From contig OZ076409.1 of NCBI GenBank assembly GCA_964187785.1, positions 39,620,001 through 39,684,000 on the forward strand: a DNA stretch of 64,000 nucleotides, read 5' to 3'. Source of the DNA: Amphiscolops sp. MND2022 (Eukaryota). A program made the position numbers and the translations under genes. The notes below the pieces were generated by a model, which searched no databases, had not been told where the DNA came from, and was given only the letters and a program-made list of their open reading frames with translations. Shown in pieces: positions 13,101 to 61,959 of this stretch. Within the stretch, counting starts at the first letter, position 1; every line of letters starts with the position of its first letter.

Positions 13101-13371
13101 ACCGTCTACGCCGGTACAATGTAGCACCAGTTACGGCGCACAACCGAAACAACCGGAAGGCGAACAGCAGACGCCAATACGGGCCACTGCGAATACCGAC
13201 GCCACTCCGAAGAAAGGGAAAACAAACCCTAAAAGAGGTAACTTAAAAATAGTAGACAAAAAGGAATTAGAAAACCATAAAACGCAAACAGAGTCACCTG
13301 ACCTTCGTAGATCAAGTAGAATAAAAGGCGCTAAACGAACTGTAAAGTTAGGAGGGGTAGAGTATTTCTAA
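10121..13371 (+). mobile_element. Mag-like Gypsy element: gag knuckles, protease, RT deleted, RNase H end, integrase and long tail
   Basis: CRFCG..HICPA..CNNCKKMGHFAKVC; FIIDTGS; jump at ~10620-10665 to RLTRWLDRL..DYLSRHP; HQGH..C..C; QLDFAGP; RTDNGSCF; VERTIRT. 901-aa ORF at 10666-13371. Confidence 0.92.
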
Positions 13372-15982: not shown

Positions 15983-17376
15983 GTTTAAATGTTGGTTCAC
16001 CATAGACGCAGAAGAATTCACAAAAGGGAAAGAACAAACGTTATTGACGAAACGAAACGGACTAATCAAAACGTGTGACAGCTACACAGCACAAAGCGTA
16101 AAGTACATGTACACGTATGTGACGAGAGTGTAAACATTTTGACAATATTAATCAGCGTTCAAAGTTTGACCAAAACGGCAAATTGAATTCTTACGCCAAT
16201 CCGATAGAAATGGATAACTTCAATGAAAGTGACCGAGATTTGAGTTCTTCACGAATTAGCAAAGTATACGTCAGAGCTAATTACGACAAGGACAGAACCT
16301 TACAAAAAATTATCGGACTACTGAAGGAACGCAATGCAACACAAATTTCAAGACTACCCCCTCCATGGCGAGAAAAGTTCAATTCGCTCAGTTTAGACAA
16401 TAATGGGTTATTATACATGGAGGAAAGATTGGTCATTCCAAAAGACATGAGAGATAACATGCTCAGTGCCATACATTTCGGACACGCAGGCAGGGACGCT
16501 ATGCTTTGTGAAGCAGCCGATGTTTGGTGGCCGCGTATCCACCGCGAAATTGTCGAAAAAGCGAAAAATTGCCAGCAATGTAGCCAATCAGGTAAAAATT
16601 TAAAATGTTTACAATCTCAAAATGGGTTTTGGAAATTGACAAATCCGGAAGTACCTAATGCAAAAATCTCACTAGATTTCGCAGGGCTAAAAACAAAAAG
16701 AACAACATACTACCCGTAGTCTCCGTCGATAATAATACTGGATGTCCAGATTCCATGTTCCTACCGGATACAACGGCACACAGGGTAGTCGAATTTCTGA
16801 ATGAGTATATTTCAAAAAACAGAATCCGCGTAGAATTCGAATCGATCCTGGCACTGTGCTCAAAAGTCAGAAATGTAACCAATTTTGTAAGGAGTTTTGC
16901 ATTGAACAAGTAGTGTGCCCGAGACCACCGCGTGAACGGAAAAGTCGAAAGGATGATTAGAAATATAAATGAACCATAACTGGTTGAGAATAGACAAAGA
17001 TACAGTTTTAACAAGGGATAATTTAGGACTGTCCAGGATTTTATTTGCACTAAGAAACCAATAAGGCGCAGATGGGAAATCGGCCTTTGAACGGCATTTG
17101 AACAGAAAACCTAATACAATAAAGAGAGTTATGTTGAAAAATTCATTTCAGAAGCCGACCCGAAAATTGAATTGAGCCCAGCGGACTTCAGCGAAGAAGT
17201 GGATTCGACCATTCTGGTCAGAGAGCGAGTGCGCGGGTCAAACTTAGAAGGCGCCTGCAAAAAGAAGAAAGGGAAAATTATTGGCGAGGCGAGCCCTTCC
17301 ATCTCAATTTTGCCCAAGAAGGGAACGACAGTGATCTATTCGAAGAGGGATGTGGCCCTACAGAGATCCAAACTGA

Positions 17377-18296
17377 CCAAATCGCCACAATCGGACAAAG
17401 AGCCAAAACAAGCAAAAGTGCCAAGTCAAAAGAGGGCAACAATTGTACCAGATCCGTCAAGTAGCGAAGAAATGGGAGCACACGAATGCAGTTGGTGGTT
17501 GGATAACAACGAGCAAAGCGGAAAAGCCGAAGAGCAAGCGGAACATGCACATCGAGAGAACACCGCTATACTTGAGTCTGCGCATGAAGAAACAAAGACA
17601 TCCCCACTAAAGGCGAATGTGGAATGGGAGATCAGCCACAAGAACCCGACAACCCAAAAATCTGCACGCAAGACCAAGAAGCCCAAATCGCCACAATCGG
17701 ACACAAAGCCAAAACAAGCAAAAGTGCCAGGTCAAAAGAGGGCAACGATTGTACCAGATCCGTCAAGTAGCGAAGAAATGGGAGCACCCGGATGCAGTTG
17801 GTGGTTGGATAACAACGAGCAAAGCGGAAAAGCCGAAAAGCAAGCGGAACATGCACATCGAGAGAACACCGCTATACTTGAGTCTGCGCATGAAGAAACA
17901 AACACATCCCCACTAAAGGCGAATGTGGAATGGGAGATCAGCCACAAGAACCCGACAACCCAAAAATCTGCACGCAAGACCAAGAAGCCCAAATCGCCAC
18001 AATCGGACACAAAGCCAAAACAAGCAAAAGTGCCAGGTCAAAAGAGGGCAACGATTGTACCAGATCCGTCAAGTAGCGAAGAAATGGGAGCACCCGGATG
18101 CAGTTGGTGGTTGGATAACAACGAGCAAAGCCGAAAAGCCGAAAAGCAAGCGGAACATGCACATCGAGAGAACACCGCTATACTTGAGTCTGCGCATGAA
18201 GAAACAAAGACATCCCCACTAAAGGCGAATGTGGAATGGGAGATCAGCCACAAGAACCCGACAACCCGTAAATCTGCACGCAAAACCAAGAAGCCC
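17377..18296 (+). repeat. In-frame 306-bp (102-aa) tandem triplication in the Gypsy tail ORF
   Basis: KSPQSD.KPKQAKVP...KSARKTKKP occurs three times in ORF 17172-18359; period 306. Confidence 0.95.
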
Positions 18297-18881
18297 GACT
18301 GGTTGGGCCACAATTTCATGAAGACAATTGATCGAGATGATGTTGCCGAAGAAAAATAGACGAAGAAACCTAAAAACCTGAAACAAACACATTGTTAACG
18401 TACATGTAAACTACAGTGTTATTCTACATACATGTGCAATTTTAGTTGAAGTTATCCTTATGTAGATTGTGTATTACTTTATTGGTCCACTGGTAACCAA
18501 TCAAATCATTTTGCAATGAATGGTTTTGATGTAAATCTAAATTGAGTCTTTTTTCAGTATTCATTACGACTGTTTTTATTTCAAATAAGAACTACGCTGT
18601 CAGTGACTTGAAAATTTGACGCATGTTGAAAATAACATGGGAAAATGTCGGACACGACATTCACCTATGAACAAAGTTCACAGAGATTGGTTGACACTTG
18701 ACAAGACCCACGGCAAGAACGTGGCCTCCATCGGGTCTCAAAAAGGCTAATTTCGCAGTCTCACATCTCCAAAACAACTCGAAATGGTTCAATTTGGTAG
18801 AAACAAATGTTTCTTGACTTTTTGCAAAAAAACAATGGTTTTTGTTTGAAATTTCAACCATCATTGTTGAATGGTCAACTG

Positions 18882-21403: not shown

Positions 21404-22195
21404 TAGAGTTGTAACCGGATTGTATTTTACCGGATTCCGGATACCTGATAATCCGGGCATTTTTCTACCGGATATTAACCGGATACCGGATAACAGGATA
21501 AATTAAATGCAACTTCATTTATTTGTATTATTTGTATTTACGACTGATTTTTTTCAGAAGTAAGATATGGATAAACGCAAGGGAAACATCTGGAATTTTT
21601 TTCGGCGGAGCCCGACCACAAGGCGAAGTGCTTGCAGCCTGGATGTGGACAGAACGTTAAGTCTCTATTCAGCTGACTCCAACATTCCAAAATTAACAAG
21701 TAATCAATGGGTACTTCTTGAGAAACTTATCAAAGTTCTTAAACCCTGTGAACAATTTACGAAGGATGTGTCTGGTGATTGTGCATCCATTTCTTTAGTG
21801 ATCCCGGGCTATAACCTGTTAAGAAACAAGAAAGCCGATTCCCTCTGCTGAAAGCTACTGCAAAAAAATATCTATCAGCGCCACCTGGATCGGTCAGAAG
21901 TGAACGGGTATTCTCCACATGCAGCAACGTTCTATCGCAGAGAAGAAATCGTCTGAAGCCAGAAATGTCTGAGAAATTGGTTTTTTTACATGATAATTTG
22001 GGTTTTGTAAAAAACATAAAATAATTGATTGTATACTTTTGTTCTTTAAAAGACAAATTTATCAATAAAAAATGTTTTTTTTTACTATCCGGTATCCGGC
22101 TATTTTTTTCTTACCGGATACCGGATAACCGGATACCGGATATTCTAAAATTACCCGGATATTCAAACCGGATACCGGATTCCGGTACAACCTTA
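21404..22195 (+). mobile_element. Non-autonomous hAT deletion derivative inserted in the 3' LTR, 8-bp TSD tttattaa
   Basis: TSD at 21396-21403 and 22196-22203; TIRs tagagttgtaaccgga / tccggtacaacctta; ccggata subrepeats; hAT C-terminus AKKYLSAPPGSVRSERVFS..RRNRLKPE..EKLVFL. The empty site is visible in the other LTR (~26250). Confidence 0.92.
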
Positions 22196-23059: not shown

Positions 23060-23642
23060 CAGTAGCGTTCTAAAATATTGTAACTCCAATGCTTAGAATT
23101 GCGAATTTCAAATCCAAATTTCTTGAAAACTGTCACAAACACAAAAAAGTGTCAGCTAGGAAAGTTTCTTAGAATTTTATCTAGTTTACAAAAATGTTTG
23201 TTTGAAATTTTTGTGACAAAAAATACAAAAGTTAGAAATTGCAAATTTTGACAAAGTTTGATCGAATTTGCACTTTTTCTTGATTTTCACAAAGTTGAAA
23301 AAAGATTTTTGAAAAACTTCCAGTCAATGATTTGCCCCCAATGCTCCTGAGGTTGCTGATATGATTTGATTGAAAAACTTTTTCGATTTCAAATGAAAAC
23401 CATCAATTTTCTAAATGCAATTCTTATAGCCTATTGTAATACATAAACTTCAGTGCTCATAGACACAAAATATAGTGTAGTTTTTCTGATTCGGAAAAAA
23501 ATTGTCGATCAAAACAATTCAGCAGGTTCGGGAGATTATAGAATGTCTCCCAATGAAAAAAAATCCAAAAATATTTATTCTAAGTTACTCAATTTTCGAA
23601 AAAAACTCAAATTTCAATAAAAGTTCACTAAAATTGTGTTAG
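23060..23642. mobile_element. 583-bp AT-rich insertion flanked by TA
   Basis: Removing it plus one TA restores QQV-DAANTG in frame between ORFs 23628-24941 and 22452-22982. The left end CAGTAGCGTTCTAAAATATT is Tc1-like; the right end does not match it. Confidence 0.65.
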
Positions 23643-25189
23643 TACTTGTTGTGCTAGTTGTTCTCGTAGTTGATTTAGATGCCTGTCTGCTTCTCGTGAG
23701 CTGCATGGCTGTTCGTTACCTGGCCCCCATTGTCTGTCTGCCTTAGCGATATCTCTTTTAGATATAATTGTTTCTTGGGATTTTCCTGCTGGCAAGAACG
23801 TGATGGTATGTTGTGATTGGTCGAGAAGTGTTCCTTTTCGCTTCTTGTACGCGCTTTCTAGTTTGGTCCCTCGGACCCGCTCCCTGACGAAAATGGTAGA
23901 GTCTTGCCCAGACTCGAAATCAGATGGCGACAGTTTGACTTCTGATGATTCTGAAATAGGAGATTCACGACTTGTTACCAGTTTTTTGACAGTGTTCGGA
24001 TCTATTCCGACGTATTTTTTGTACGGCGACTTGCCATTTCTCGTTGAATACATGCGCAGAGCAAATAGGATTTCGGATAGACCTGAATGGTCCCTTTCCA
24101 GTATGATTTGTTTGTTCGTGCGTAGTCTTTCGTTTATAATGAAGCAGTTTGCGCAAAATGTTTTGAATCGTTTACTGCAAAAAATAGTCGCCGGGTCGGT
24201 CCTAATGCTTTTTGGAATGCCATGTCTCGCTATGTACTTCTTAAGGAACTCAATAACTTTTTCTGTCGTAGGCTTTCTTAAAAATTTAGCCTCTGGCCAC
24301 CCCGACAAGTGATCCACTGAAACTAACAGATATTGTTTTGCTGCGGGTGCGTTTTTAAAAGGACCGGCAAAATCTATTGCGATTTCTTGATTTATCTCAC
24401 TTACCTTTGGTAGTTTTCCGAATTGTTTTTGCGTTAGTAATGGTTTAATGTTCTTACCTGCATTTTGGCATTGTGGACATGATTTTGCTAGATTGACGAC
24501 CTCCCGGTGTAGTCGTGGCCACCACACGTTTGAAACGGTCGCTAACATCGTGTCCCTGCCGGGATGTCCGTAATGTAAAGAACGAATGATAATTTGGCGT
24601 AACGCTTTGGGAATAACTAAACGCTCGTCCATGTATATAAAATCGTTTGGATCGAGGCTCAAACAGCGAAACTTTTCCCTCCAAGGGGTGGGAAGGCGAT
24701 TTATTTTGGTGCTATCGGGCTTCTTGAGGAGAGCCACGATTTTTTGAATGAATTCATCGGTCTCGTATTCTGCGGCGAATGTAAAATTGCCCAACGTTTT
24801 TAGGACTTCGATCTGATTGACACTATAGCACATAGGTACTTTTAGTGGCGGTTGGTTTGCTGCGTGGCGGAATTCCTCGCTCATCATTTCGCTCGATTGT
24901 TCGGCTTCGCTGACTTTTGACGTGTTAAATGATTGTGGCAATTTCGTTGAGTGTTTGTTTATTTATGGCAATTCGTGTTTGTTCGTTTGGCAATTGTCGC
25001 TTGCTTTTGTCGTTTCGCTCTCACTTGATGAATTGTTGCTGCCTTGCCATTGGCTGTCGTTCGCTGCGTGCGGTGCTACTGGCTGTTCTCTCGCGTTTTG
25101 TGTTTGTGACGTATCTGTAACAAATTTATTTTTGGTTATTTCGTTTACAGTAAACCAATTATTCCACCTTTCTTCTGCTTTAATTTTGT

Positions 25190-27662: not shown

Positions 27663-28319
27663 GTTTTTCGCCTCAAAATCCGTTTAAAAAATCTTGACGC
27701 AAATGACACTGGTTTCCATTCTTGGTTATATTGCTGTTGCAGCGTCGCTTATGATTCTAATTTTCTAATTCGTTTAAAATGTGTCGCAGCGCCATGTTGG
27801 AGCAATACTTGTTGAGTAAAATTGCAAAATTGCGTATTATATTACACAAATATTCGTATTTTCAAGTTTAGTACCAGTTTTGAACAAACTGCCAGATCAT
27901 CACAATCTGCCATTATTTGATGACTTGCTTCATTTTTGGTACCAGTCACGAGTATCTTTATTCGTACTTCTTGGATTTTTTGTGTCAATCCGTTTTTCGC
28001 TTCAAAATCCGTTTAAAAAATCTTGACGCAAATGACACTGGTTTCCATTCTTGGTTATATTGCTGTTGCAGCGTCGCTTATGATTCTAATTTTCTAATTC
28101 GTTTAAAATGTGTCGCAGCGCCATGTTGGAGCAATACTTGTTGAGTAAAATTGCAAAATTGCGTATTATATTACACAAATATTCGTATTTTCAAGTTTAG
28201 TACCAGTTTTGAACAAACTGCCAGATCATCACAATCTGCCATTATTTGATGACTTGCTTCATTTTTGGTACCAGTCACGAGTATCTTTATTCGTACTTCT
28301 TGGATTTTTTGTGTCAATC
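27663..28319. repeat. 329-bp tandem duplication containing an LTR end and PBS (minus strand)
   Basis: Period 329; each unit reads ...tgctccaaCA TGGCGCTGCGAC on the minus strand. Confidence 0.85.
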
Positions 28320-28419
28320 AAAACAATTTCCTTTGATATAAAATTGAATTAATTTAAAATGATTATTCAAAATCAGCGGACCAATCAGAGAGCAGCGGCA
28401 AAAGTGTCATTATAGCAGC

Positions 28420-28574
28420 AGTGTTGGCGTGGAATCCAGGACAAGCACTGTCGTGGAATCCAAGAAACGCTTAACATCAAAGAGAAATTTTGTCCTGGAT
28501 TCCACGACTTTTCTCAATTTTCGTGTCCCGGATTCCACGAAAATCAGCGAAAAGCTTGCCTGTGCACTGTAATG
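28420..28574. mobile_element. Right terminus of a CACTA/CMC-like element
   Basis: Ends gcttgcctgtgcactgtaatg, identical to the right TIR of 47025-47329; gtggaatccaggac subterminal motifs in both orientations. Confidence 0.8.
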
Positions 28575-29230
28575 ATGGGCTACTATTTATGGTTTCTCAT
28601 AATACAAACTGCTCATTTAATTCCTCATCCAAAAGATTCTGGAAGAGAAGAGAGAAGGGGGGGAAAGGACTAAAAGTCCTTTTGTGATCTCGGTGACAGA
28701 CTTTAATCAGAGTATATGTATTGCTTCTGAGATAGCACACTATTAACTCTAATGTTTGCACCGCTTTCCATTCAACTTTGGACTCAGTGTCCGCGCGCCT
28801 TTATTTGGTATACGAATAGCGTCGGTTTGGCGGCATATGGCCTTTGAGTCCTTTAATTTAGAATACAGCACAGGAATGAATGAGCAAGTAAGTGAATAGC
28901 GTGCTGTGATTGGTTGAGAGATTGGAGGTACAGCGCGTTCAGCGAGACAGGCGAGGAAACATTTGAACTCGTTTCCTCTACCTGTACGCCTTGGTGTCCA
29001 ATTTCTCAACTGCTGTGCATATCTATCATAATTTTACATGTATTAATACATCAGATTCAACTTTCAAATGTATATTTTACATGACAATTCCCGAATAATG
29101 ATCACAAAGTGTTTCAAATTTGATAATATAAAAGCTCCAAGTAAAATGTTGTGTATGTAAAATCAATCATAGTAGAATGAGTTTATAGTTCATCTTCTGT
29201 GGCTTTTGGACTGTTAGTCCTTTCTTCAGT

Positions 29231-30040
29231 TTATTGGAAGCGTACCGGGAGAGTACCATAGTTGTATCCGACCGAATACCAGTTGCCATCGCAGGCGGCA
29301 GCCCGCGACACTCCCCCTGGCATAAGCAGAAAAGCGCCAGCGTTCATGCCATCTAAAAACGTTCTCCTCCTTGCCTGAGTCTCTGCTAGAGTCTCTCCTA
29401 CTGTCACCGTTCTGTCCAGGTATTCGTTGACGGTTTCTTCCTGGATTTGTTGTACTGGCTTCCCGCGTATTATGCAGTCCGAGTAACCGACCAAAGAGGA
29501 CGATTCAGCTAAGGCCATATAGATGAAATGACTCGCCACTGCTTCCATTGACGTAGATATAGAGGATGGTGAATTGTCACGAGAGCCACAGAGGTATCGG
29601 GGTCCTCTGTCCTGTTCGGGCGGCGATAGCGGGGTGTCCACTTGTGGCACTAGGTTGCGGCAGATACTTATAGGGTGGTTAGATTTGATCCTGTTGTCTC
29701 GACTCACGGGCCCATTTCCTCTTGCTAGATCGAATTACTTCTCCCTGAAAGTAGGAAAGGGCGGCACATTAGGTCTGGGTGTCACGGGTCTTTTCTGCGT
29801 CGGATTAGCTGAGGTAGACGGAATCAAGATGGGTTCTGCTAGTTGTCTTTCAATACATCTAGCCATGAGCTTAACCTCTTCAATTTCGTCTTCTGACGAT
29901 AAATACAAATCGTCTACGGAGCACGAGCTGAGGACTTCCATCTCTTCCTCAACGCTGGACATATAAATAATTGCGGATTCCCACTCAGCTTTCGCTGCGC
30001 CGATGAAGTCCATCGGGAAAGTCTCAGTGACGTCGGACAT
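29231..30040 (-). pseudogene. Extra sense-strand ORF of the Gypsy element, unknown function, disrupted near 29735
   Basis: Consecutive ORFs 30040-29735 and 29707-29231 with protein-like composition; runs through the PPT and stops inside the LTR. Confidence 0.55.
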
Positions 30041-31336
30041 GGCTCGTTTTTTGAAGATTTTCTTCGCAATCTTGACTAGTTTTCAATTGAGAAACAGCTG
30101 ATTTTCAACAGAGAAATTGATAGAATGGCGGTTTCAGTTTCCGCGGACCGTGAGTCTCTTCGTTTCTCTTTTAGCGGGGTTTTACATTCCCCGGTAAATA
30201 AATTCTCAATAACAAAATTCCGTCGCCTGAGTCCTTTCATCATGCCGCCGAGCAACTTTATAATCGCCGACATCGGCTTTATTGACTATCATCAGCTAGG
30301 TTAACACTTGTAAGTTAGGAGAGTTGCCTCAAGTGTTTATTAACACTCATCAGGTACTTGAGAGTTTCGAGGAGGTGAAGTTATGGCAGTTAGCCACGCC
30401 GTCCACCAATAATGTGATCAGCCAATAGGAATGCAGCAAGATTTCTTCCAAGTCAAAATGGCTCCCCAAGGTCAAAAATCCATATAAGGAATAATATGAA
30501 ATGACCTTGAAAATAAAGTAAAATAGAATAAAATAAGATAAAATCATGAAATAATTTTGTAAAATAACAAAGTTTTCAAAATAAATGGGGAAATGTAGAT
30601 ATCGCTGGCAGACTTTATCCACATAACGCCAAACATTGTAAATAACCGTAAATTTGACACCAAACTGTATAGCCACGAACTCCAATTTTGACATCTTGTC
30701 ACATTGCCGATTCGCCTTTCAATTCTTTATCATTCAATTCTCTCACTTTATTCTTCATCTCTTGTATTATCCAGTATTTAATCATCGTCGTATTTATCCA
30801 TCTTATATTTAGTCGATAGTTAGTTTTGAGTCGCATTTTAATTGTATCTCATAATTCCACAATCTTCTAAGGACTCAGCGTCCATTCGTCCCTGTCCTTG
30901 TGGATTTTCCAGATTTCCTCGGACAATCGACATCCAGTCCCAACTCTGACCGTTATCGATCAAATCCAGCTGTTAGCCTTTCTCCCACGAAACTTCGCCA
31001 ATCAAATCCCAGGAACGTTCTAGTGGCTTTTAACAGTTGCATTTACGACCCAAATTCCTCTGCTGCAGTGAGCTTCCTCTTCAGATTGACACCCCTTTTT
31101 GCAATAGCTGGACTAAATCTGACTCATTCACAATACCAGGTAAGCTGATGTTCTTTTGAATTTGAATAGGAATTAGGTTTGATCAGGGCTCTAATCACTT
31201 TCATAGACTTTCTGTCCACTTAACACAAATGTTCACGAGTGTTCAAACAAATTTACTTCCGGAAGATTTCTTAGCGCGGTAAATGGATTTCAATTCAGGA
31301 AGGTTCCCGCTTGATCTTTTCTCTTTCTATTTAGAC

Positions 31337-34300
31337 ATGTCATCAGAGGACGTAACAGAAAAGAACACCCTACAGCTTCCCAGTACTGCAGAAAATGAAC
31401 AGCCAGCAAATTCAAGTCAGGAGGTAACAGTAGTGAGACAATCCAGCGTCCAAGCAGTCTCTAAGGTAGGTTGCGAAGCACCTACTTCAAGTCCTTCCAC
31501 TGGAGAGAGTGTCAGCAATTATGTTGAACGAAAGCTCCAAGAGATGGGCCAGCAACCGGAGGCGCAAATCCTTCCTCCCTTGGATGCCGAGAAAGAAAGC
31601 TTACCCCAGCTCCAGAAATCCCGAAGACGTCCGTGTCTGACGCCATCATCAAAGCCTTCACCACCGTTGAAAGTTTCCCAGAAGACGGGATGGACGTCGA
31701 CAGGCCTGAAGAAGAAATGAGTGAGACGGGCCGATTCAAACTCAAGGCGGACTTCTTCCAAACTGACACAAGCGAGGTCGAAGATATATATGATAGTGCG
31801 GGAGCTGACACTACGGCTAATAGGCCTACTCTAATTGCCTCAACACTCGTCGATCCTGACGCTTCAGGTCCGGAAGACCTAGGAGGAGGCCAAGTTGATG
31901 ACATCTCCAGTTTGGTAGCGAGAGCGCGCCTTCCCAAGGACACTTCCTCCCTCACCGTACCAGGGCGAGCTTTACTCAAGAAGTACTTTGCCGAAGCCCC
32001 GCCAGTCCGACTCCCACTTGGGCACCGCACCTTAGCCCTTAGTGAGCCCCAAGTCCACACGCTACTGAAAGTTGTGTCAGATGAGGCAGTTGCGTCATCT
32101 CTCCGTACAGTCCAGGCGTTGGTCAGTGATACCCTGAGAGCAGGAGGACGTCTATATAGTAATGGAGTCGTTCCTGGAGGGGCCAGCCAAGCTCGTAGCC
32201 TCTCTGAGAGTTCTGGGGATGATCCAAGTCGGGGGGCTACACCACGGATGGTTACACTAGTGGGGCACTCAGCTCTGATGATGAGTTTTTCGCGAGACAA
32301 GTCAGGCCCCTCTCGGAATCGATCAACAATCAGCCCCCAATACCTGCCCAAACCAGACCAGAAGGGATGGCTCCAAGTCCCGGATTCACTGCTTTAGACT
32401 ACCAGCCTCTATCACAGCTATGCTCAACTCCGGAGGGGCCAAGTCCCTCGAGACCAGCTCGGAAACGGCGACGGCTGGCATGTTCCACCGGCAAGGTCAT
32501 GAAAGAGGCCTACTTAAATGGCATCAAATGGACTAGGACCTTCGTAACAGGCCCACTAGACCCTGAACATAACAGGCATAAGTTTTACTGCCAAATTTGC
32601 AAAACTAACGTTTCGATCTTCTCAAAAGAGGCACGAGAGATCATCAGGCACTACCAGACAGAATCGCATCTTCGCAAGGATCAGCGTTGGCGATTTGAGC
32701 ATCTACGTATCGCTGATAAAATCATTGGTCAACTAAAGCACGAAGTCCGTGGCAAAGACGGACATGTCCTAACTGCTCTTGAATTGGAGAAAGAAAAGCC
32801 ACTGTTTGAGAATGCCGTCTTGGTGGATATCGGGGACAAACACCCGTTCTATGACGATTAGATGGCTGGAATCACCTCTTCGTCGAGCTTCGAAGAGATC
32901 AAGCTTTGCACGCAGATGTCTCTGATTAGGTACTTCGTCCCTCGAGGTGGAGACGTTCTCGTTTTACAATCTTTGTGAAACCAAGTGAGCGTCGCAGCTA
33001 ATCATAAAGAGCCTTTCTTGCCGCTTGACTGGGCGGCAACAACATTGACCGTAAGTATCTGTTCACTTTGGGGTACGGGTTGTTAGGCGTTGCAATTCCT
33101 AGCTCGTTTCAATTTGCTCAGTCTCCTTTTGATTTCAGACTATCTTCCACCAAATCTTCCTCCGTGGCGTGAGCGACCTTGCCCACCATGTGAACAATTC
33201 GGGCAAGTACTCCCTTGAATTTGACCCAGTGGGATTGTACTGCGAGGTCTCTATTCGCTTCTGGAAAGGAGACAATCTGACTACTGTTAAGCTCATGCGC
33301 TACCGACTAGCCAGTGAGCACGCTGCAGGAATGTTGACCGCTGTAACCCGAATCCTTTCTTTCCTGTCTGTGCAGCCGCAGTTGGTCAGCGTATCAAGGT
33401 GTGCTTCTGAACTGATCCCTATACTGGAACAGTCCAATCTTCTGACCAAAGGGATCCACTAGCCTTTCCGGTTCGATGCCTTCTCACTAACCAAGATCAT
33501 GCATCAGAGGTGGGGGAGTGTTATTGGAGGCATAAATTTCTTTTCCCAGCTTCGTTTCTTGGTTACCTTCCTTGATGGGTGTCAGGACCAAGTCTGGGCA
33601 GCACAGTCGCCAGAACTTAGCAAGGTAAAAATAAGGTTATCCCCTGGGAGGTAGTGACTAGGTGGGTGCGATTTTCTGTGTTTTTTATTTAGGCAATTTC
33701 GACATGCAAGCTGGAGATTACATCTATCCCCACAATCTGCTCCGAGCTGCTGGCCGACTGGAAGGCCGTTCGTGACCACATGACCCGTACTGCTCCCACA
33801 CAGGAAAATCAGGGTGTCCGGCATAGGGCCCAGAGCCTCGAGTGGAGCATCATTGGAGACGGATTTTTCCACCTCAAGCTTGAGTTCTTTGGCCGGATTG
33901 TCCGTGATTGTTAGTATTTTTCTCCTTATCCTACTGGTAGCGCTAAGTCCAGATATCTGCAGGTTTTCACATATAGGCAGTTCTTGAATTGGTCTAGAAG
34001 GATTGGAGATCTATGTATCCCCTACTGGTGTAGCTTGAGTAATATTGTTGTTTTGCAGATGTCAAGGGCTTTGAGGGAAGTTTGTCGCGGCGAAGGATTC
34101 CGGCTTCATTACATATCGGGTATTGCGGCAATTCATTCGGAAGCTGTGCTACAGGTCATTGCTCCCCAAACATTCGCCTGATGAGTCGGATTGGTCAGGA
34201 TTGTTTGCCTTGCAAGGACAAACTCTCACACAGCTCTCTAGTTGGGATTTCTTCCACCGACTTAAGTTGAAGGGAGATTTGGACGCAGCCTGCCGAACCC

Positions 34301-35211
34301 GAGCCAAGCAAGAAGTAGACGACCCGGAAAGTGTGCACAAGGATCTTGAGGCAGCAGTCGAGTCAGTCAAGGAGGAGTTCGTCGTCAAAGCACGTAATTA
34401 CCTGGTCTTCCTGCTCGAGCGCTTCCTAGACGACATCAGTTTTAACTCTGACATTGTTAGGGGAATGAGTTGTTTCGACCCTGTGGTCCTTCTGTCAGTC
34501 TCTTATGAGGAAGCAGCCGCCTGTTTTTCAATCCTTTACAACTCTTTTAGTCTTCGTGAGTGGATGGTCATTACTCCTGAGGTCGAGGCTCGGGACGAAT
34601 ATCTTGAGTTTCTGGATTTCTTTCGGAACAAGTATGCAGATTTCCGTGATGCCCCTGAGACCTTCACTAATATGGTTGACTTGCTTTCCCCTATGCCTGA
34701 GCTGCGATCCCGCAAACATCTCTTCTTTCTGTTTCAATTAAGCTGTCTCTGTTTGACATCCCATCTTCCTCCTCTGCCTGCTATCAAGTTTCAAGGAGTG
34801 GACAGTAGTGACCCTCGTTGCCGATTATCCGACGTCATACTTCCTGCCCAGTCCTATCTTTCCCACGTAGCTGGGTCAGTCGCCGTGTGTACCACTGAAG
34901 CCTGTTTGGATAAGTATCGACATCTTGAGTCTAGCTTTGCCGAAGGGAATGTTGCTGGAGATCCCTGGGCTCATGTAGATAGCTTCGGTAAAGTCACCTT
35001 CCAGAAGGCCCTCATTTCTGCACAAAAGGCTCTACAAGAAAAACCACGGGCTACACGTCGGTCTCCAGCTTCATCTGTTTCCAGTGCTGGGGGGCGAACA
35101 CGCATCCGGTCTCCAGATAAAAACAAAAAGGGAGTGAAGTTTGGAGCTACTACTTTCTCTGAAGCGCCTGCTTCCGGTGAAAACTTGTTGCCGGGAAGCT
35201 CTAAAAATTAA
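31337..35211 (+). pseudogene. Antisense spliced cargo gene: BED/TTF-like zinc finger plus hAT-transposase-derived fold, with frameshifts and stops
   Basis: Candidate GT-AG introns ~31140-31333, 33051-33138, 33625-33692 and 33963-34058. Motifs W..D..KFYCQICKTNVSI..IIRHYQTESH; KYSLEFD..VSIRFW..AAGMLTAV; FLLERF..DIVRGMSCFDP. Confidence 0.7.
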
Positions 35212-35448
35212 ATGTACATAGTGTGCATTTGTTTTGTAGTTGAGTGATTTTGTATTTATTATTGTAATTGTGCTTCCGTTACTTGTTGTATAATTTGACG
35301 TTTTTTGTTGTATTTCTAGGCCATCTGGTCTGTTTTGATGTTGTCTTCATTTATATGTATATATAAAGTCAGTAAGGTCCGATGGAAAAAATAGTAAGGG
35401 AGTTTGTCCGTCCGCAGGACTAATCTGGACGTTAATTTACATATCTGA

Positions 35449-38400
35449 CTAGTATCTGTAATTATCAGTAAAGTTGGGGTTAGGGTTAGGTCGAAGATTA
35501 TATTTCCCTTCTCTAGGGCTAGAATTTTCCTCATTTCTTTCATTTTCCGATATTCCGGGCACGGTAATATCTGCGCCTCTATTTGAAGCAATTTCTGTGC
35601 TTTCTAAATCATTAGTGGCGTCATTTTCATCTTCTGCCCTCATAGGCGATTCATTCAGGGAGGACGGTACGTCTCGGTTAGTGGCCGGTCTCGGCCCTAT
35701 TGTATTCTCGTTTGCGTCACTTTCATTATTTTCTGTCTCAATTGGCGTTTCGCTCAGCGGGGACGGTGCATCGTGTGTGGTGGTCGATTTCGGCTGTATC
35801 TCGTTTTCAATGACGTCATTTTCATTCCTTTTGCTGCTGCTACATTCGTCGTTGTTCGCGGTGCTGCTTTCATTTTCGGTGACGTAATAGTCTACTCCGC
35901 CCCTTGCGGCGTCATTCGGTAGGCGCGTGGCCGTGTGCGGCCAATCATCTTTTCTCGGCTCAAACAGCTCGTACTCAAAGTCCGCTTCCCATAAGATGGT
36001 GTATAGGTCATCTTGCGGTATTATTATTGATTCGTCAGGCTGTAATTTCTCTTCCTTGTACTTGTCCTCTAGTGGGGCGTTTGGAACGAATTTTTGGAGC
36101 CTGATACGGTGTAAGATTTGCGTCTTTTTCGTCTTTAAACGACGCACTATATAACTGTTGTTTGGTAACACCTTTTGAATAACAAAGGGACCAGTCCACC
36201 TGAAGTCCCTAAATGGAATTTTAGAGCCTTGAGTATCCGCTTTCGTTTGAAGCACAAAACAGAGGTCCTTTTCTTGTAGTGGAGCCGCTTTGGCCTTTCG
36301 GTCATAGTATTCTTTGTATTTTAAATAAGACTGCATAGTAATCTTTTTCGTCTGGTCAATGAAAATTTGCGTCCTCTGCTGCAGTTCTTCTGCGAATTCG
36401 GTTGTCGGTAGGAAATTTTTATTAGGATTATTTCCTAATTTATGATCAAGGACATTGTAGGGAATTCGGCCGTGAAAAACTTTGCTAGGCTCACAACCAA
36501 TACTAGAGTGATAAGTAGTGTTATAGTTGAGCACAGCTAATGGCAAATATTTGTGCCATTGTCGTCGATATTCCCCTGAGGCCCTTTTCAAATTAGTCTT
36601 CAGAGAGGCATGTGTCCTTTCGAGTTTGCCGATAGTTTGCGGGTGCTTGGTAGTTGCGCATTTTAGTGTTATTCCCAAAATTTCAGTGATTTCCTCTAAG
36701 ATCTTTGATGTAAATGCGGACCCCTTGTCCGTGATGAGGGTTGTCGGTAAATACGAATGTTTCGTCATAATATCAATTATTACCTTGGCTACATTTGCGG
36801 CTGTTGCCTCAATTAGCGGATAGGCAAATAAATATCTTGAGAATACATCTATTGCTGTCATCACTGTTTGGTATCCGCCGCTAGTTGGTAAATTTGGTAG
36901 TAAATCGATTTGCATGGCATCTTCTGGGCCTAGGTCTGATTCGGGCAAATTCAGTAGTTCGGGTGTGATTACCGTGTTGGGGACCCTTTTGTCCTTGGCA
37001 CATGTTTCGCAGCCTTCTACCCATTTTTTGACATGTTTTGCAATTCCGGGGTAGTAATATTTTTGGCGAATTTCCTGTAGCGTTTTAGAAATGCCCGGGT
37101 GGCGATGTGCCGTGCCATGTATTGCTTGTAATAGTTCTTTGAGTAAATGCTTTGACAATAAAATTTGGTGATATTTGACATGTCCGGTTTCGTCGTAGTA
37201 CTGCCGCGTCACTATTTCGTCTTTGAGGACTATTCGCTCGATGTTGTTCAAATAGTATTTGTACCTAATATCCTGTTGAAGGATTTCGCCAGAGTATATT
37301 TCTTTTTGAAGTTTCGCCTTCGGGTCTCGAGACTGTTCAAGAAGTATCTGATTCGTTCTTCACAATTTTTGTGTGAAGTTAGTGATTTCCTCAACCGTAT
37401 TCTCTGATATGGCGTCAATTTGAATTACTGTCTCAGGGACCATGAGTTCTTTTTTGGATTGCAGTTTCCGGTCCCAAATCTGTTGTTCTGTTTCATTGTC
37501 TTCTTCAGTAAAGAAGACTTGTTCTTCTTCAGATACCCCTGCTGATTGGACATTGACCTCGATCGGTCGGGTTTCGACGTCCTCACCTATTTTCAGAACT
37601 AACTTTTCAGTAGGGTCCATTTCCATACGGGACAGTTAGTCCGCTGCTGTGTTGTTTTTGCCTGGAAAGTGAGCTATGACAAAGTTGAATTGAATGACAA
37701 AATCACAAGCATTCCAGAGCGGCGGTGGGATTATTTTCGTCTGGAAAAACCTCGTGACCGATTTGTTATCTGTGAGAATAGTCACGGGTTGAGGGGTTCC
37801 CCAGAAAATATGTCCGAATTCGTTGAATGCGTAACAAATAGCCAGGAATTCCTTTGCATATATCGACATTTTGAGCTGAGAAGGAGTAAAAGTTTTGGAT
37901 CCGTATGCGATTGGTGCATAGGACTTTTTGTCAGAAGTGTATTTTTGATTTGGGTTGTCTTCGGTCAGTATGGCGTAACTGGCTGCCGTAAAACTTGCAT
38001 CGGTCATGAGGACCAGTTGTTTGTTGGGCAGTGGTTGTTTCAGTGCCAGTTGACTGCATCTGTCTAAATCTCTATTGATCTCATTGAATTGTTCAACCAG
38101 CTCTTGAGTGACTAGGACCGTTTCGTCTAGGTTTCGGATACTCTTGGTATATAATTCCTGTAATAGTTGAGGAAACCAAGATAGCGTTGTAGGGCCTTCT
38201 TGGACTTTGGGAATTTTGTCTTTTCCAAGAAGTTAGTAATTCTCTCTTTTTGGGGCCTTACACCTTCAGGTGTAATGGTTCTCGCGAGAAAGTCGATTTC
38301 AGTAGCGCCGAAGTGGCACTTGTGCATGGACAATTTCAATCCTGCTTCTCTGATACATTGGAATGTTGCTTAGATTGACGATGAGTTGGTTAGCGTCTGT

Positions 38401-39950
38401 CGCTGCGACACCGATATCATCTACATATTGAGCACATTGGTCTGCTTTGATAACGCGATCCAGGTATTCCCTCATAAAACTGGAGAAGGCCGACAGGGCT
38501 CGACTGAGTCCTTGGGCCAATCTCCTATATGCAAATGTTCTGCTGGCGAAGTTAAAGTCTAGCATTTCAATGGATTTCTGGTCCGCCATGGGAAGGCAAT
38601 GGTAAGCTTGGGAACAGTCGAGTTTGCAAAAAAGTTTCTTGCCAGCCAAGGTGCTGACTGTGTGGTTGTTACTGACGTAGTCATCCGAAATCAGGTTATT
38701 GATTTTTCTCAAATCCATCAACAGTCTCAGTTTCCCGTTAGGTTTTTTCTGCGCGAATATTGGACTGGCGTACTTTGAGAATGGTAGTGTTGTTATGATC
38801 CCATATTTATTGAGTAACGCCAGTTCGACCAATATGTCCTCTTTGAGGTTGACCGGAGTAGGTAGGCTCTGACTGTAAGCAGGTGACTCGTCCTTTGGGG
38901 TCAGTTTGACCGTAAATTCCTCGTTGACGCCAACGTCAAATCTATGGCGTGCAAAAATATCATGAAATTCTACTAGTAATGTTTCTAGTTGTCTGATCTC
39001 ATGTTGTTGTAACATTGAGTCTTTCCAGTCAAAATTGCTAAGGAATTTTCGACGGGATTCCGCATCGTCATGCGGGTTGAGTTTCTCTAAATTTTGCAGG
39101 CTTCGTAATTCTTTGAGAATTTTTGTTGTATTGGGGTATGGGTCGTTTCATCCCCTGGGTTTTCAGGCGTCGGGAACCAATATTGTTTGTATTGGTCGTT
39201 TTTTCTATTAGCTTTAAGAAGGCTGCTGATATAATAAATAGCGTCTTCTTCGTTTTCATTCAGTAAATGCCATGTGGACATTGGGTCTTTTGGCCTGACA
39301 TGTTTCATCTGTTCGGGAGTCATTACTGAGAAATTTGTGATATGCATCCCTTTTTTGAGTTTATAGGGCTGGTCTGTGAAATTGTTGACGTGTGTCTTCA
39401 TAGCCCCTTCATGTAGTGTGACTATGGCGGCACAAAAGGTTATGTCGCATTCTTCATGCAGAAGATCGCTGGGTTGTAGTATGCCCGTAACTGCATTTTC
39501 TGCGTAGATTTGAGATTGGATAGGTATGACTACATTGTCATTTGGTGGAAGTGTGACATCTTCAGAGTTGAGGATTAGTTCCAATACACTTGAGTATTTG
39601 TGGTCAGCCGTCTTGAGTTGCATCGAGAAGTAGGGAAAATTAAGAAAACCTTGGCGCATGTCCAGGACGGTGTGGTTCCTTTGGAGGAACATCAGTCCGA
39701 TTGTAGGGCTAGACAATTTTTCCATTACAATGAAGATTTCATGAAATTCTATGTCGCCCACTTCGAACTTTAGTTCGACGGTACTCTTCGGGGTTTCTAA
39801 GTCTCCATTTGCGACCATAATTTGGAAAGACGGGGCAGGACCTTCTTTTACTATGGATTGAGGGGCCAATAGGCGTATTTTCCTGAGGTCTGCTTCCGGT
39901 ATTGCACTGGAGTGGGCCCAGTGTCAAATTAGGCCGTCTAGAGGTAATTC
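35449..39950 (-). pseudogene. pol: Gypsy pol (protease-RT-RNase H-integrase), frameshifted
   Basis: DTG protease motif near 39925 (frameshifted); YASPIF, KLDCSQAYH, QYVDD; TDAS, YAKEFLA, TDNK; H..H..C..C, QIDLL, TDKGSAF, LERTH, GPF. Confidence 0.93.
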
Positions 39951-42217
39951 CCCAAAATCCATTGGGAAATAGAGCATTCGTCGTTTAAATTTAAGTCCAA
40001 GGTTTGTTGAGAGGGGAACATATGATGGTTCTCCTTCTTTGGCCACTAAAAGATGTAAGAAAGACGTTTCATCTAAAAGGCTATTAGAAGCATTGTGGTC
40101 TTCCTGTCGGTGTGTGGCGTCTACTTCTGCTATCGTTGCCTCAAAGTTCGGTTGCCAAAGATCAATAAGGGCTCGAGATAGTGTATTGTCTGGTATTGCA
40201 GGATCATCCTCGTCATCTGTTGGAGGATAATCTTCAGTGCGAAACTGTAGGTTACTCTTGTCGTAAATTTCGTCGTCCCAGTACGGATCTTTGCCAAACT
40301 CGGGGTCGTAATACTGAGGGTTATAATCTTCGATAGTTTGTAGGGGTCTGAATTGAATTTCGGAGTCATTGTGATTGCTATTGCGTCGATATAAGTATGG
40401 GTGGTCACTGTGGTTAATATATTGAGTTTCCATGCGGGCGTTGTCCATCTGCTGCTGCCAGACAGTCGATGGCATTCCTGTGGTGTCGTTTTGAGTTTGT
40501 TTATAAATAATGTTTGGTGGGTCAGATATGACATATTGTCCCACTGACATCTGGTTGCAAACTTGGCCTGAAGGTGTAGTTTCAGGGTAAGATGACTTCT
40601 TGGACGATTTCTCATCCCCGGAAGTTTCATCGGCATTATCTTCGGGTCGTGTTTTTTTGGGACGTAAATGTGCCCCAGCTCCTTTCCAGCACCTCTCAGC
40701 AGGGTGATTCGTTTTCTTGCAAGTGGGGCATTCTGGGTATGTTGGACGTTGGGGCTTTTTGCCGTTTTTGTCCGCCAGTTCTTTCTTCTTTTTCAATTTG
40801 GGGCAGCTCTTATAGAAGTGGCCTGTGGCTTTACAATAAGAGCATTGTGCGTCCTTGTTGGTGTTTATTCCGTTAGACAGTAGGTTGTTATTACTAGTGG
40901 ACGCAGAGGCCATTGTGGCCATTGGTAAGTCATCTGAATCTTCCAATGCATTGAGTTCAAGCTCTCTTTCAAGATGAGCTACGATTTCTTCGTATGTATC
41001 GTTCTCCAGGCGGGCCATGTTGACAGATCGTTTGAGTTTTGGAGGCAATTTTGCGTACAATAAGCTGTCAATCATGCTCTTTGCATTTTCACCAAATGCC
41101 TTTTCTGCCCCCTGGTTGAGTTCCTCCAAGAAATCCGGCACTTTCATGGTATTTGTGTCAAAGGTCAACCGATGCCATTTGTGTTTTGCCGTTGCTTGGG
41201 ATTCCGGTTTAACATATTTCCTCCGGAATATGACCAGCACATCCTCAAGTGTTTGAAGGTTGATTGAGTATATGTTCCTGAAGGTCTGCAGGGCCCCTTT
41301 CCTGAGCAAAGAATGAAAATGGTTGATTTTCATTTGCTCTGTCATGGCCGGATGCATTTCGATCATTGTGTGGAACAAGTCCTCAAAAAGTTCAAATTTC
41401 TCGCTTTTCCCATCAAACGTCATTAGTGTGGTTTGGACTGGTCGGATGGTCATTGTTTGTGGTTTATTTTGCAGATTGACCAGGACGTCGGCCAGTCTGT
41501 TCAATGGGTCCTGTGGGGTTGCAGGAACCTCTGGTTCTGGGGCTGGCAGAGTGGTGTCCAAAGAGACATTAAGGTTGGATTGCGGTCTCTCCAGGTTCGG
41601 GATTGAGTGGATTCGTCCGGTCAGAAAATCGGGAATTTGCTGTTGGGTTTCGTTAGCTCCTGTCACCATGTAGTGACCGGTGGCCGTGGTGTCTCTTAAA
41701 TCACCAACAGACCTTGAGTCCTTTTTTGTTATTTTTGATCTCAACCCGGATGGATGTTCCCTATTTTCCTGACTACAAGGGGACATACTGGCCTCAGTGT
41801 CCCTGTTCCCTGAAAAAGACATAGAACTCACAATGTTCTTGAATTTCAAGAAAAGTTCTCTCCGTGATGGCATCACTGATACCCCAATTTATTTGACTAT
41901 GCATCATGGACATCATTGAATCCATCTCTTGTGATAGTCTAAGATTGAATTCATTTGAGAAGGTCTCAAGGGATTGTCTAATGTCATTTTGCCTGGGAGG
42001 TTATTTTCATAGCGAAACTAGCATACTGATTTCCAAAGTGCTCATTCGACTCTACATCTCCCTGTACCGATGATTGTTCAATAGCATCAGCTAATTCTCT
42101 TTCTATGGGGTTGTTAATCCCATTTCCTAGCATCACGTCCATATTTTCTATATCGGACAGCATGTCCACCTCTCTAGATTTTCTAGCTTTTGCTATCTGG
42201 CGTCTGGTAGAAGGCAT
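39950..42217 (-). pseudogene. gag: Gypsy gag with two CCHC knuckles, frameshifted near the N-terminus
   Basis: ATG at 42217 (MPSTRRQ); TFDGKSEKFELFEDLF; CSYCKATGHFYKSC and CPTCKKTNHPAERC. Confidence 0.88.
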
Positions 42218-45200
42218 AAGATTATTGCAAGAGTAAAGAATTTGAATTGGAATCTTTAGGCTTGCAAACAAAATTTTATTCGGTTATTTAACAACGAACT
42301 GACTGTGACTTCTTGTAGGAAAATTTTCTCCCCGGGACCACGAGTCCCGGTTATTTATAATCAACCTAGCATGACGTACATAAAATTGGATGTCATCAGT
42401 CTAATTTTAGCAACAAATATTCTAAAAATAGACACGAGGGACAACGTGTCTTTACAAATATAATAGCGTAATCCTAATAATAGTAACTGCCATGACGTAA
42501 TTGATTTACACACGTTTATACGTATGTAGCAACTACGTTCATGATTGTTCATGTGGCCCTTCAGGCCGTTCAATTGAGTTTCATCAGCAACATTACATGT
42601 AGAGCAATTCATGTTAAATTACATCTAACAGATACGTATAAGGATGGTACATAGACATATGGGCTACTATTTATGGTTTCTCATAATACAAACTGCTCAT
42701 ATAGTTCCTCATCCAGAAGATTCTGGAAGAGAAGAGAGAAGGGGGGAAAAGGACTAAAAGTCCTTTTGTGATCTCGGTGACAGAATTTAATCAGAGTATA
42801 TGTATTGCTTCTGAGATAGCACACTATTAACTCTAATGTTTGCACCGCTTTCCATTCAACTTTGGACTCAGTGTCCGCGCGCCTTTATTTGGTATAAAAA
42901 TAGCGTCGATTTGGCGGCATATGGCCTTTGAGTCCCTTAATTTAGAATACAGCACAGGAATGAATGAGCAAGTAAGTGAATAGCGCGCTGTGATTGGTTG
43001 AGAGATTGGACGTTCAGCGCGTTCAGCGAGACAGGAGAGGAAACATTTGAACTCGTTTCCTCTACCTGTACGCCTTGGTGTCCAATTTCTTAACTGCTGT
43101 GCATATCTATCATAATTTTACATGTATTAATACATCAGATTCAACATTCAAATGTATATTTTACATGACAATTTCCGAATAATTATCACAAAGTGTTTCA
43201 AATTTGATAATATAAAAGCTCCAAGTAAAATGTTGTATATGTAAAATCAATCATAGTAGAATGAGTTTATAGTTCATCTTCTGTGGCTTTTGGACTGTTA
43301 GTCCTTTCTTCAGTTTATTGGAAGCGTACCAGGGAGAGTACCATAGTTGTATCCGACCGAATACCAGTTGCCATCGCAGGCGGCAGCCCGCGACGCATAG
43401 TAGTTTTGAACTTCGCAAGCGTTTTGTACGGCACATTGACCCTGAACACTCTGAGTTTTGAAACTATCACTGGCAAGAGAACTCCGAAAGGTCCATTTGT
43501 TGACCAAAAACGATACCGATAAAGTGAATTAAATTACAACATAATTATTATTATGTAACTTCAAGCAAACGGGATACATGCTAGAGCCGGGACAATGCCT
43601 AGGTTGCTTTGACAAGAGACCATAGTCTTACTACAAGCCTAGACATCAGCTTTTCTCTCAAAAGTGATCTCTTAGGGGGACTTTCCTGACGTCGAGGAGG
43701 CTTCTCATTCTGAGGCGACGTGCCGGCACACTCAGAATCTCTCCCACAAGCAAGTAAAAACGATTCCTGAGGTTCCTGCGACTACTCCCGGGGTACAAAA
43801 AGGCATTTATCTGAAATACATTATATTGGGTCTAAAGGGAGATAAAACAGTAGATCTAGAAGATCACACATCACCAAATACCTGAAAACTGTAACAAAAC
43901 AACAATAATAAGCCGAGATCACATCTAGAGCAGTCGCAGCGAGTTTTGTGTCTCCGGTACAGTTTGTACAAAAACTCCATTCTTCTGATTTCCGGGAATG
44001 CCTGCATTCTCTTCTGAGCTTAAGATGGTACACACTCAAGTTGGACTGTTTTTCACATTCGGAAAAAATATTTTGTCTTTCTCGATGTTTTTTTTCAATC
44101 TTTCTGCTTTCGGATGTTCTCTGCGCGTGTTGGTCGTGTAACGTCTTCTTGACTGATTTTGGGGTGCCTGCCATGTCGGCCATGTCACAATTAGATTTTT
44201 TCAAAAATTTCGAACATGTGCCATCAAACTGGTGGACGTTAAACTGAATCATAATGATTTTTTCATCTTTGTGACAACTATTTTTTTCCTGATGATACTG
44301 TTTGAAAACAACAAAATGAGCCAGCAGTTCAAAAATGAGCTTGAAGTCACGCCACTCTCATCTGTTGAAAACATCCAATATAAACAATAAAAGCAAGCAC
44401 TTCTACTTCCGCTTCATTAAATTTGGAATTTTATTTTCAGGTCGCAGAAAAAGGCGATTATCCTCAAAAATTCGATTCGTCAGTTGAAGTGGCAGTCAAG
44501 AATGTAAAGTGTTTATTGGAAAATGCGCCATATTGCTCAAAACAGGTGAAAAAAAGAAGTTCGAAAATGCTATTTGAGTGTCTGACAAGTGCTTCCGTAC
44601 CTACACGAACGCATAAAAACTTGTGGCAGGTATTTGCCGACACAAAGCATCTATCTCAAATTTTTTTTCAAAATCTGAACATTCGATGCATCGGGTCCAA
44701 CAGCGTCTCTCTGTTTTGCACTATTGTCAGTGCATTTTTTGTAGATTTGGGGCAGAAATTTTGCAAGGGGTTGCTTTCAGAGTATAGTTCCCAGGACAAA
44801 GGTGCTGGTTTTGAGATCAAAATGCCCATCAATTTTGCTAATAGCAAGCGGGGGACAATCGAAGGAAATTACAGGAAACACCTTCCAAAAACGTATATAA
44901 ATGAAGTTATACATACATTGGTATCCAAGCAATCAGCTACAAACATTTGCAAATTTTTCAGTACCTTCACATAATTGCACGCGGGTTTCTATGTGCCGCT
45001 TTGAGAGGCCGTTTTAGATGAGTTCTGAATGAGTTCACCTTCATTTAGTGAACTTTGTTCCTTTTTGAGACATTTGTTCTATGGGTTTGGTCAAAATTCA
45101 ACTTATCGATTGGAAACTATTTTCAACCCTGTGATAAAGTTTTAACAAATTTTTTGATCTGATAATTTCCTGAGCAAGACATTTTCAATGCTATACACCA

Positions 45201-61433: not shown

Positions 61434-61959
61434 TTTGAATTTTACATCAAAATTTGCCACACAACTTCAAACATGATGTTCCTAAAAAGAAATACCAATG
61501 GATTGCGATCAAAACGGAAAAAAATCCCCGAATCCCAAGTCTCAAAACTTCTCTCAGCCGCAACAATATAGTTTAGGTGACGCCGTAGTCTAATTGATCA
61601 GCAAAACGAAAAGTATTCAGGTATGTCAGACAAAAGTAAAACAACACTAAAAGACACCCTATCCCTCTATCAGTAAGGACACTAAAGACGTACAGGTCTT
61701 GCTGACTCCTAGCAGAAAACAAATATCTAATTAGTTTCATATCAGAACTACAAAATGCAAGAAGTGGATGAGAAACAACGATCACGAAGTTTTTTATTGC
61801 TCCGTGTGGAGCGTGCTCTACTGTCCATTGAAAAAATTGGAAGATTCATATGATTCTGATTTGATGTTGGGGATTTTCGACAGCGTCGAAGTAATTCTTT
61901 CCCACTATTGAAATCGAATTTCTTACTCGTATTTACAATACATGTTGGGATCATGCAGT

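Follow-up and report, generated by a model that had tools for sequence, protein, structure and literature searches.

Organization of the locus

The 64,000-nt stretch of Amphiscolops sp. MND2022 DNA analyzed here, referred to as the window (contig OZ076409.1, positions 39,620,001 to 39,684,000, forward strand), contains a long terminal repeat (LTR) retrotransposon of the Gypsy type that carries, antisense to its own genes, a large additional gene that probably descends from a hAT-type transposase. The element, which is decayed, occupies 28568-43394 on the minus strand and has Pfam matches to gag, protease (PR), dUTPase, reverse transcriptase (RT), RNase H (RH) and integrase (INT). The order PR-RT-RH-INT behind gag is that of Ty3/Gypsy, and the family shows the TG..CA LTRs, primer-binding site and polypurine tract of this group, with a target duplication within its 4-6 bp range. 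The interval separating integrase from the 3′ LTR holds two additional genes in a back-to-back arrangement, namely a plus-strand gene (31337-35211), antisense to pol, and a sense open reading frame (ORF) of 275 codons. The backbone of the element consists of the following features.

41669-43394, minus strand: 5′ LTR, about 1.73 kb, matching the LTR of an undeleted relative
41658-41668, minus strand: primer-binding site, beginning with TGG on the minus strand and adjoining the 5′ LTR
35449-41888, minus strand: gag and pol (protease, dUTPase, RT, RNase H, integrase), from Pfam matches; broken in the window copy
29311-29321, minus strand: polypurine tract, adjoining the 3′ LTR
28568-29310, minus strand: 3′ LTR, shortened relative to its 5′ partner by an internal loss of about 1 kb

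The two LTRs of the window copy are 97.4% alike over 736 nt, and those of relatives are 1.5-1.75 kb long. A perfect 5-bp target duplication was found at 30 of 51 elements and none that was clean at the window copy. The dUTPase lies between protease and RT both in the window (39087-39923, minus strand) and in an unbroken copy (L024:5434-9999), where it is barely above the Pfam cut-off; this enzyme has been called rare among retrotransposons (PMC5408684). At three pairs of loci (L015-L016, L057-L058 and L099-L100) elements of the family are nested within or lie head-on against one another. A 329-nt tandem duplication is located beside the LTR at about 27663-28320, and Rfam gave no match within 28500-43500.

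The antisense gene occupies a fixed place throughout the family

Searches of the same genome yielded at least 40 scored matches from 94 candidates at the DNA level and at least 120 from 7,042 candidates at the protein level. At 49 of 50 places selected by means of the gene, Gypsy pol is found downstream on the opposite strand, and the 50th stops at an assembly gap; in the most distant clade found, whose exon 4 is 33-34% identical to that of the reference copy, 14 of 14 further places are also antisense to Gypsy pol. All 63 informative copies among the 64 fetched in this way are thus antisense to pol, and no free-standing copy of the gene occurs among the 64 places. Relatives picked by their integrase end alone give the same picture: in 20 of 20 the gene is present with unchanged position and strand, and no empty site occurs. 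No terminal inverted repeats were detected around the cassette in the 10 copies tested, only scattered AT-rich 14-mers, and the inverted ends and 8-bp duplication by which a hAT DNA transposon is recognized were accordingly not seen. Word-based protein searches with the gene matched unnamed ENA proteins only, and the window contains no further match to the accessory gene.

The initial annotation of this DNA had described a Gypsy element with a convergent plus-strand gene between pol and the 3′ LTR and without evident inverted repeats around it, and had proposed that collecting the genomic copies would show whether they always sit in this position. The arrangement proves to be family-wide, and neither relatives lacking the segment, among the 20 selected by integrase, nor inverted repeats of its own, in the 10 copies tested, turned up as a nested hAT element should have produced.

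Predicted splicing and selection on the gene

The gene model, with its predicted introns, reads as follows.

31140-31334, plus strand: predicted intron in the 5′ untranslated region (UTR), donor and acceptor present in the alignment, acceptor-plus-ATG context in 44/51
31337-33050, plus strand: coding exon 1, with an acidic region rich in serine, threonine and proline (S/T/P-rich), a conserved block, a basic run like a nuclear localization signal, a finger and a helical region
33051-33138, plus strand: predicted intron 1, phase 0, GT..AG in 47/51 and 19/20 copies
33139-33624, plus strand: coding exon 2, predicted RNase H-like half domain, with a stop at 33460 in the window copy
33625-33692, plus strand: predicted intron 2, phase 0, GT..AG in 47/50 and 17/19
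33693-33909, plus strand: coding exon 3, uninterrupted in the window, with an additional intron inside it in other subfamilies
33910-34058, plus strand: predicted intron 3, phase 1, GT..AG in 45/50 and 18/19
34059-35211, plus strand: coding exon 4, mostly helical, with a weak alignment to the insertion domain and C-terminal part of Hermes and a frame change near 34070

Exon edges were set by ungapped protein probes that are blind to GT and AG, and a junction was counted if both probes scored with a gap of 50-250 nt. GT..AG was present at 158 of 170 junctions (47/51, 47/50, 19/19 and 45/50) in a first set that includes the three probe copies, and at 71 of 77 (19/20, 17/19, 17/19 and 18/19) in an independent set, where 0.4% would be expected by chance. 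The introns are 61-173 nt long, and their interiors are 52-69% identical, as compared with 44-96% at the protein level for the exons. From these patterns the gene is predicted to be spliced. Four candidate introns had been annotated within the gene; only three were found within 31337-35211, with one more candidate upstream of them, in the 5′ UTR (31140-31334). The frame changes near 31595 and 32235 were also considered as introns and rejected, as other copies have a single open exon of 564 codons there.

A further coding intron, within exon 3, is present in 20 of 51 copies and absent from 31, including the window lineage, and it is present in all 20 integrase-selected copies. It is cleanly absent from one clade of the cassette tree, and under the midpoint root used for that tree we infer that this is best read as a single loss by way of a spliced mRNA.

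While the window copy is broken by stops at 32859, 32976 and 33460 and by frame changes near 31595, 32235 and 34070, unbroken copies of about 1,180 codons do exist. The initial annotation had proposed to test for an intact consensus ORF and for a ratio of nonsynonymous to synonymous divergence (dN/dS) below 1. Pairwise dN/dS is 0.02-0.29 across all parts of the gene for pairs with a proportion of synonymous differences (pS) <0.65, near-saturated pairs giving unreliable values of up to 0.51; pol gives 0.02-0.10, and no part of the gene exceeds 1. The fixed position, the kept splice sites and the purifying selection together support the view, drawn from comparison of the copies, that the gene has been domesticated by the retroelement.

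Probable relationship to hAT transposases

The gene product contains a finger of the form C-x2-C-x16-H-x5-H at 32589-32669, in which C, C, H and H are conserved in 39-40 of 40 copies and an upstream Trp is also near-invariant, and the finger region is the best-kept part of the protein. This finger had been called BED/TTF-like; a CCHH finger is there, but the Pfam BED and TTF models did not match it, C2H2 models alone responding, below cut-off. Amid the variable N-terminal region, a conserved block of about 65 residues (approximately 31930-32150, exon 1) occurs in 59 database proteins.

Unbroken natural copies served as input for structure prediction, in which each exon was treated separately. 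The exon-2 model (predicted local distance difference test, pLDDT, 69; 30 sequences) has the layout helix, three strands, helix, strand, helix, which is that of an RNase H-like fold. In a wide structural alignment, Hermes ranked first of 48,161 chains for this model (Z 6.5, root-mean-square deviation (rmsd) 3.1, 103 residues aligned, 1-110 on 153-264), and among the matches listed by Foldseek, Hermes 8SJD had the highest query TM-score, 0.42. For the exon-4 model (pLDDT 71), Hermes came fifth in the wide alignment and gave the longest alignment (Z 4.8, rmsd 8.0, 169 residues aligned, 12-299 on 378-607). The Hermes ranges of exons 2 and 4 are in order, and their spacing is 246 residues here versus 225 in Hermes. 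Because these two matches agree, in order and with similar spacing, behind a CCHH finger, although each alone is within the range of common folds, we estimate that the gene quite likely descends from a hAT-type transposase. The ESM Atlas pointed weakly to hAT-type clusters (0.90, few features in common), and scanning for the motifs of another hAT clade yielded a single degraded match. P-element and RAG-type transposases were not among the structural matches listed for exons 2 or 4, and are not thereby excluded. The hAT-derived scaffold of the initial annotation is likely insofar as both exon models resemble Hermes, weakly (Z 6.5 and 4.8), and the outcome of no structural similarity to hAT did not occur; its weak side is the low fold scores and the profile searches, including those against the PDB, which were blank for a hAT link.

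The catalytic triad of Hermes comprises D180, D248 and E572 (PMC2533014), and the hAT CxxH motif includes H268 (PMC4763223). The corresponding places were located from the Hermes-aligned ranges and by-eye comparison with hAT motifs (P0140). The window copy has YSLEFD at 33208-33225, LVSVSRCASE from 33382 and LCLTSHLPP from 34747, as originally noted. YSLEFD had been taken for a hAT-like first strand; the motif is present, but its Asp is unrepresentative: of the 43 unbroken exon-2 copies, 35 have Glu and 8 have Thr at the first Asp position. Replacement of the second Asp, CxxH and Glu, also proposed originally, was found at the inferred places: the second Asp region reads Ser-Gly-Cys, with one acidic residue in 43 copies over positions 82-90; the third, Glu, position is variable in 40 copies; and exon-2 residues 107-122 contain no CxxH, only a lone His122 in 39/43. 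In this register both the D, D, E triad and the CxxH motif of an active hAT transposase are lost, and the cutting residues have likely disappeared.

Several results weigh against a dead, hAT-derived scaffold. The exon-2 score for Hermes is tied with those of integrases, Argonaute and Pelota (Z <8), and Foldseek listed Argonaute, integrases, RT RNase H and Hermes for this exon, none at E <= 0.001. The exon-4 match (Z <8) is tied with helical bundles, and Foldseek listed nothing at E <= 0.001 and not Hermes for this exon. Pfam BED, TTF and hAT models did not match the gene product, and neither hmmsearch with 44 hAT loci from the same genome nor hhalign against 99 hAT proteins of one clade rose above reversed controls. 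Finally, the catalytic register was set from aligned ranges and by eye, and a conserved Glu two places before the expected Asp (41/43) and a later His (39/43) leave some chemistry possible.

Exchange of the cassette between backbones

Comparison of near-identical elements shows that the cassette is exchanged between backbones that are 97-98% identical and that such elements carry very different versions of it. Neither this exchange nor the second accessory gene had featured in the initial annotation. At four loci (L023, L069, L089 and L091) the LTRs, sense ORF and gag-pol are 96-98% identical, and a 4.5-kb stretch holding only the antisense gene is mostly 30-75% identical; in the same comparison pS is 0.04-0.10 in pol and about 0.8, i.e. 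saturated, in the cassette. Rate differences were rejected as the cause of the mismatch, as the synonymous sites are saturated in the cassette and not in pol. After 14 of 71 loci were dropped for a missing anchor or weak junction, the remaining 57 distributed 18 cassette types over 14 backbone groups. In this sample, which was chosen by similarity and whose pairs are not independent, 120 of the 199 pairs whose backbones are >=90% alike differ in their cassettes (<70% alike), and backbones are <85% alike in 10 of the 82 pairs whose cassettes are >=90% alike. An approximately unbiased (AU) test on 28 rows rejected monophyly of the cassettes carried by one backbone group (p 0.004). The close backbones of the window element carry other cassette types. 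The cassette edges are fairly sharp in swapped pairs, and the LTR plus sense ORF and other modules also recombine, with some crossovers falling inside the cassette.

The second accessory gene and conserved non-coding motifs

Three features border the antisense gene and its UTR intron.

29231-30040, minus strand (sense): second accessory ORF, about 275 amino acids, with a stop at 29737 in the window copy; dN/dS 0.08-0.16
30100-31139, no strand assigned: intergenic stretch that separates the divergent accessory genes; predicted to hold the promoter and the crossovers of the left side
35210-35232, plus strand: conserved hairpin directly behind the stop codon, from a 12-copy alignment

The second accessory ORF has an acidic N-terminus and conserved Cys motifs near its end, and no Pfam family matched it. 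Its last codons encode the polypurine tract and continue into the 3′ LTR, which recalls the arrangement of HIV nef. Of 85 loci, including 8 that lack coverage of the region, 42-63 contain the conserved blocks of the intergenic stretch, and identity falls across this stretch in swapped pairs. In the UTR intron, motifs at 31181-31189, 31255-31265 and 31296-31302 are conserved in 37-47 of 51 copies; they are kept across subfamilies though the introns otherwise diverge, and the 11-mer at 31255 is found in 60 of 85 loci (8 without coverage). They contain GGAA cores that we take to be like ETS sites. The hairpin includes TGTACA(T/A)A in 47/51, with a fold z of -2.9 for 35200-35290. It contains TGTACATA, which presumably resembles a Pumilio element or a UGUA polyadenylation signal.

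Possible roles of the antisense gene

We propose as most likely that the antisense gene, with its probably hAT-derived and likely dead scaffold, encodes a nuclear DNA-binding protein that activates its own family or counteracts its silencing, a role for which we consider the case to be evenly balanced. The features behind this proposal are the acidic S/T/P-rich N-terminus, the basic run, the near-invariant finger and the transposase-like scaffold. An internal promoter between the two accessory genes would transcribe the integrated element antisense, and the mRNA would be spliced; the multi-intron structure would survive because the gene faces backwards, so that its introns persist in the reverse-transcribed genomic RNA. 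The basic run would bring the protein to the nucleus, where the finger would bind a motif common to the family, the acidic N-terminus would recruit host machinery, and the dead transposase body would serve as scaffold. Template switching at conserved flanks would move whole alleles among backbones. The free movement of alleles among identical LTRs, together with the finger being the best-kept part, suggests one shared target, for which the conserved intergenic and UTR-intron motifs are candidates. The BED domain of Hermes is described as binding subterminal repeats, short repeats of its own element (PMC10368747), and VANC provides a precedent for an anti-silencer encoded by a transposable element (PMC6719617).

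The results do not separate activation from integration targeting, which counts against choosing the former. With the same origin, the protein might instead tether the integration complex to chromatin or aid nuclear import of the element DNA, for which the finger, basic run and transposase-like body would be suited as binders of DNA ends or targets, and roles of this sort have been proposed in a review for the antisense ORFs of plants (PMC7264820). We consider this unlikely, as the long acidic S/T/P-rich N-terminus would seem to resemble an activation region more, and the target duplications show no obvious common sequence.

The extent of swapping (18 cassette types on 14 backbone groups, the 120 of 199 mismatched pairs, the AU result, and the low pS of pol where the cassette is saturated) favors an explanation in which the cassette is a specificity locus in a conflict, its alleles escaping host silencing or excluding rivals and their exchange being selected. 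No part of the gene has dN/dS >1, however, and other modules recombine while some crossovers fall inside the cassette, so that neutral template switching could explain the swapping; we regard selected exchange of this kind as quite unlikely. A broader version, in which a domesticated DNA-transposon enzyme serves as a spliced antisense regulator whose diverged, interchangeable alleles are shuffled under selection as a specificity module against host silencing or siblings, may be entertained tentatively.

That the accessory gene is real but derives from some other RNase H-fold protein with a C2H2 finger strikes us as very unlikely. The sequence searches gave no link to hAT, and for exon 2 Hermes shares its score with integrases, Argonaute and Pelota, but Hermes alone is near the top for both independent models, with its ranges in order and at about the right spacing, and the finger precedes the fold regions as BED does in hAT transposases (PMC10368747). 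That the cassette is simply a hAT insertion, nested or site-specific, or else passenger DNA in decay, is hardly credible and already contradicted: the fairly sharp cassette edges and the true hAT elements in this genome would suit such a view, but the lack of inverted ends in 10 copies, the 63 of 63 informative copies antisense to pol, the absence of any free copy among 64 places and the 20 of 20 integrase-selected relatives carrying the gene lead us to reject nesting, and strong purifying selection without catalytic residues speaks against both.

Other features of the window

A true hAT transposase fragment with an ERVFS motif, repeated elsewhere in the genome, lies at 21636-22000 (plus strand). 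Pieces of a different LTR-element family, two with integrase domains and 23% like the Gypsy pol described here, are found at 10651-13371 (plus), 23628-24962 (minus) and 505-1407 (plus). A 739-codon ORF at 54520-56739 (minus) ends in a YTH domain (E 4e-48) and is probably a large exon of a host gene for a reader of N6-methyladenosine (m6A). Region 2585-26900 contains a dispersed 199-nt repeat family with kilobase direct and inverted duplications; an ORF at 17115-18359 contains 306-nt tandem units, and another at 60582-61466 (minus) has an EMI domain.

Comparison with known systems

Like the hAT transposases represented by Hermes (PDB 8EDG, 4D1Q), the gene product has a finger, a helical region, an RNase H-like half, a helical insertion and a C-terminal part in its predicted layout; unlike them, it lacks DDE and CxxH at the inferred places, has about 370 extra N-terminal residues and moves only as Gypsy cargo, with no terminal repeats or 8-bp duplications found. 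ZBED-type and ALP1-type factors are host-domesticated transposases. The gene resembles these and Kat1, a further such case (PMC4763223), in that a scaffold is kept under selection for a new job, but it now belongs to a multi-copy retrotransposon instead of the host, and Kat1 is described as retaining a catalytic motif (PMC4763223). The likeness to VANC of VANDAL concerns the proposed role, that of an accessory protein encoded by a transposable element and acting on the DNA of its own family, whereas VANC is family-specific and resides in a DNA transposon (PMC6719617).

Among animal elements, the bdelloid LTR elements likewise place a dUTPase between PR and RT and share a varied set of extra ORFs among themselves, but their ORF3s are of the env, GDSL or DEDDy type, and none is described in that account as antisense or intron-bearing (PMC5408684). 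Our literature search, outside whose coverage lay most subscription journals and Repbase, found no hAT-derived, intron-bearing, exchanged antisense gene in Gypsy.

The closest parallel is with the antisense ORFs of plant elements (Retand/TRP28, Grande gene23 and RIRE2), which are also in Gypsy, at the same place and in the same orientation, in most copies, and are proposed to be nuclear regulators; Grande gene23 is reported to have its own upstream promoter (PMC11963269, PMC7264820). The gene described here is, in contrast, about 1,180 codons long with 3-4 predicted coding introns, a word that does not occur in the main texts of those two papers, and Pfam scans of its product gave no match to Transposase_28 (PF04195), the domain of Retand TRP28. 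While the origin and function of the plant genes are called mostly unknown (PMC7264820), the likely source here is a class II transposase, to whose fold the gene appears traceable, and its alleles have been swapped between backbones. The many near-identical young copies, with at least 18 cassette types on shared backbones, constitute a natural experiment from which the effects of alleles on expression, silencing, target choice and copy number may be read against a nearly constant backbone. Our studies suggest that a mobile element of one kind has tamed one of another kind and keeps it as an exchangeable helper, and, if true, this would be a transposase domesticated by another mobile element rather than by a host.

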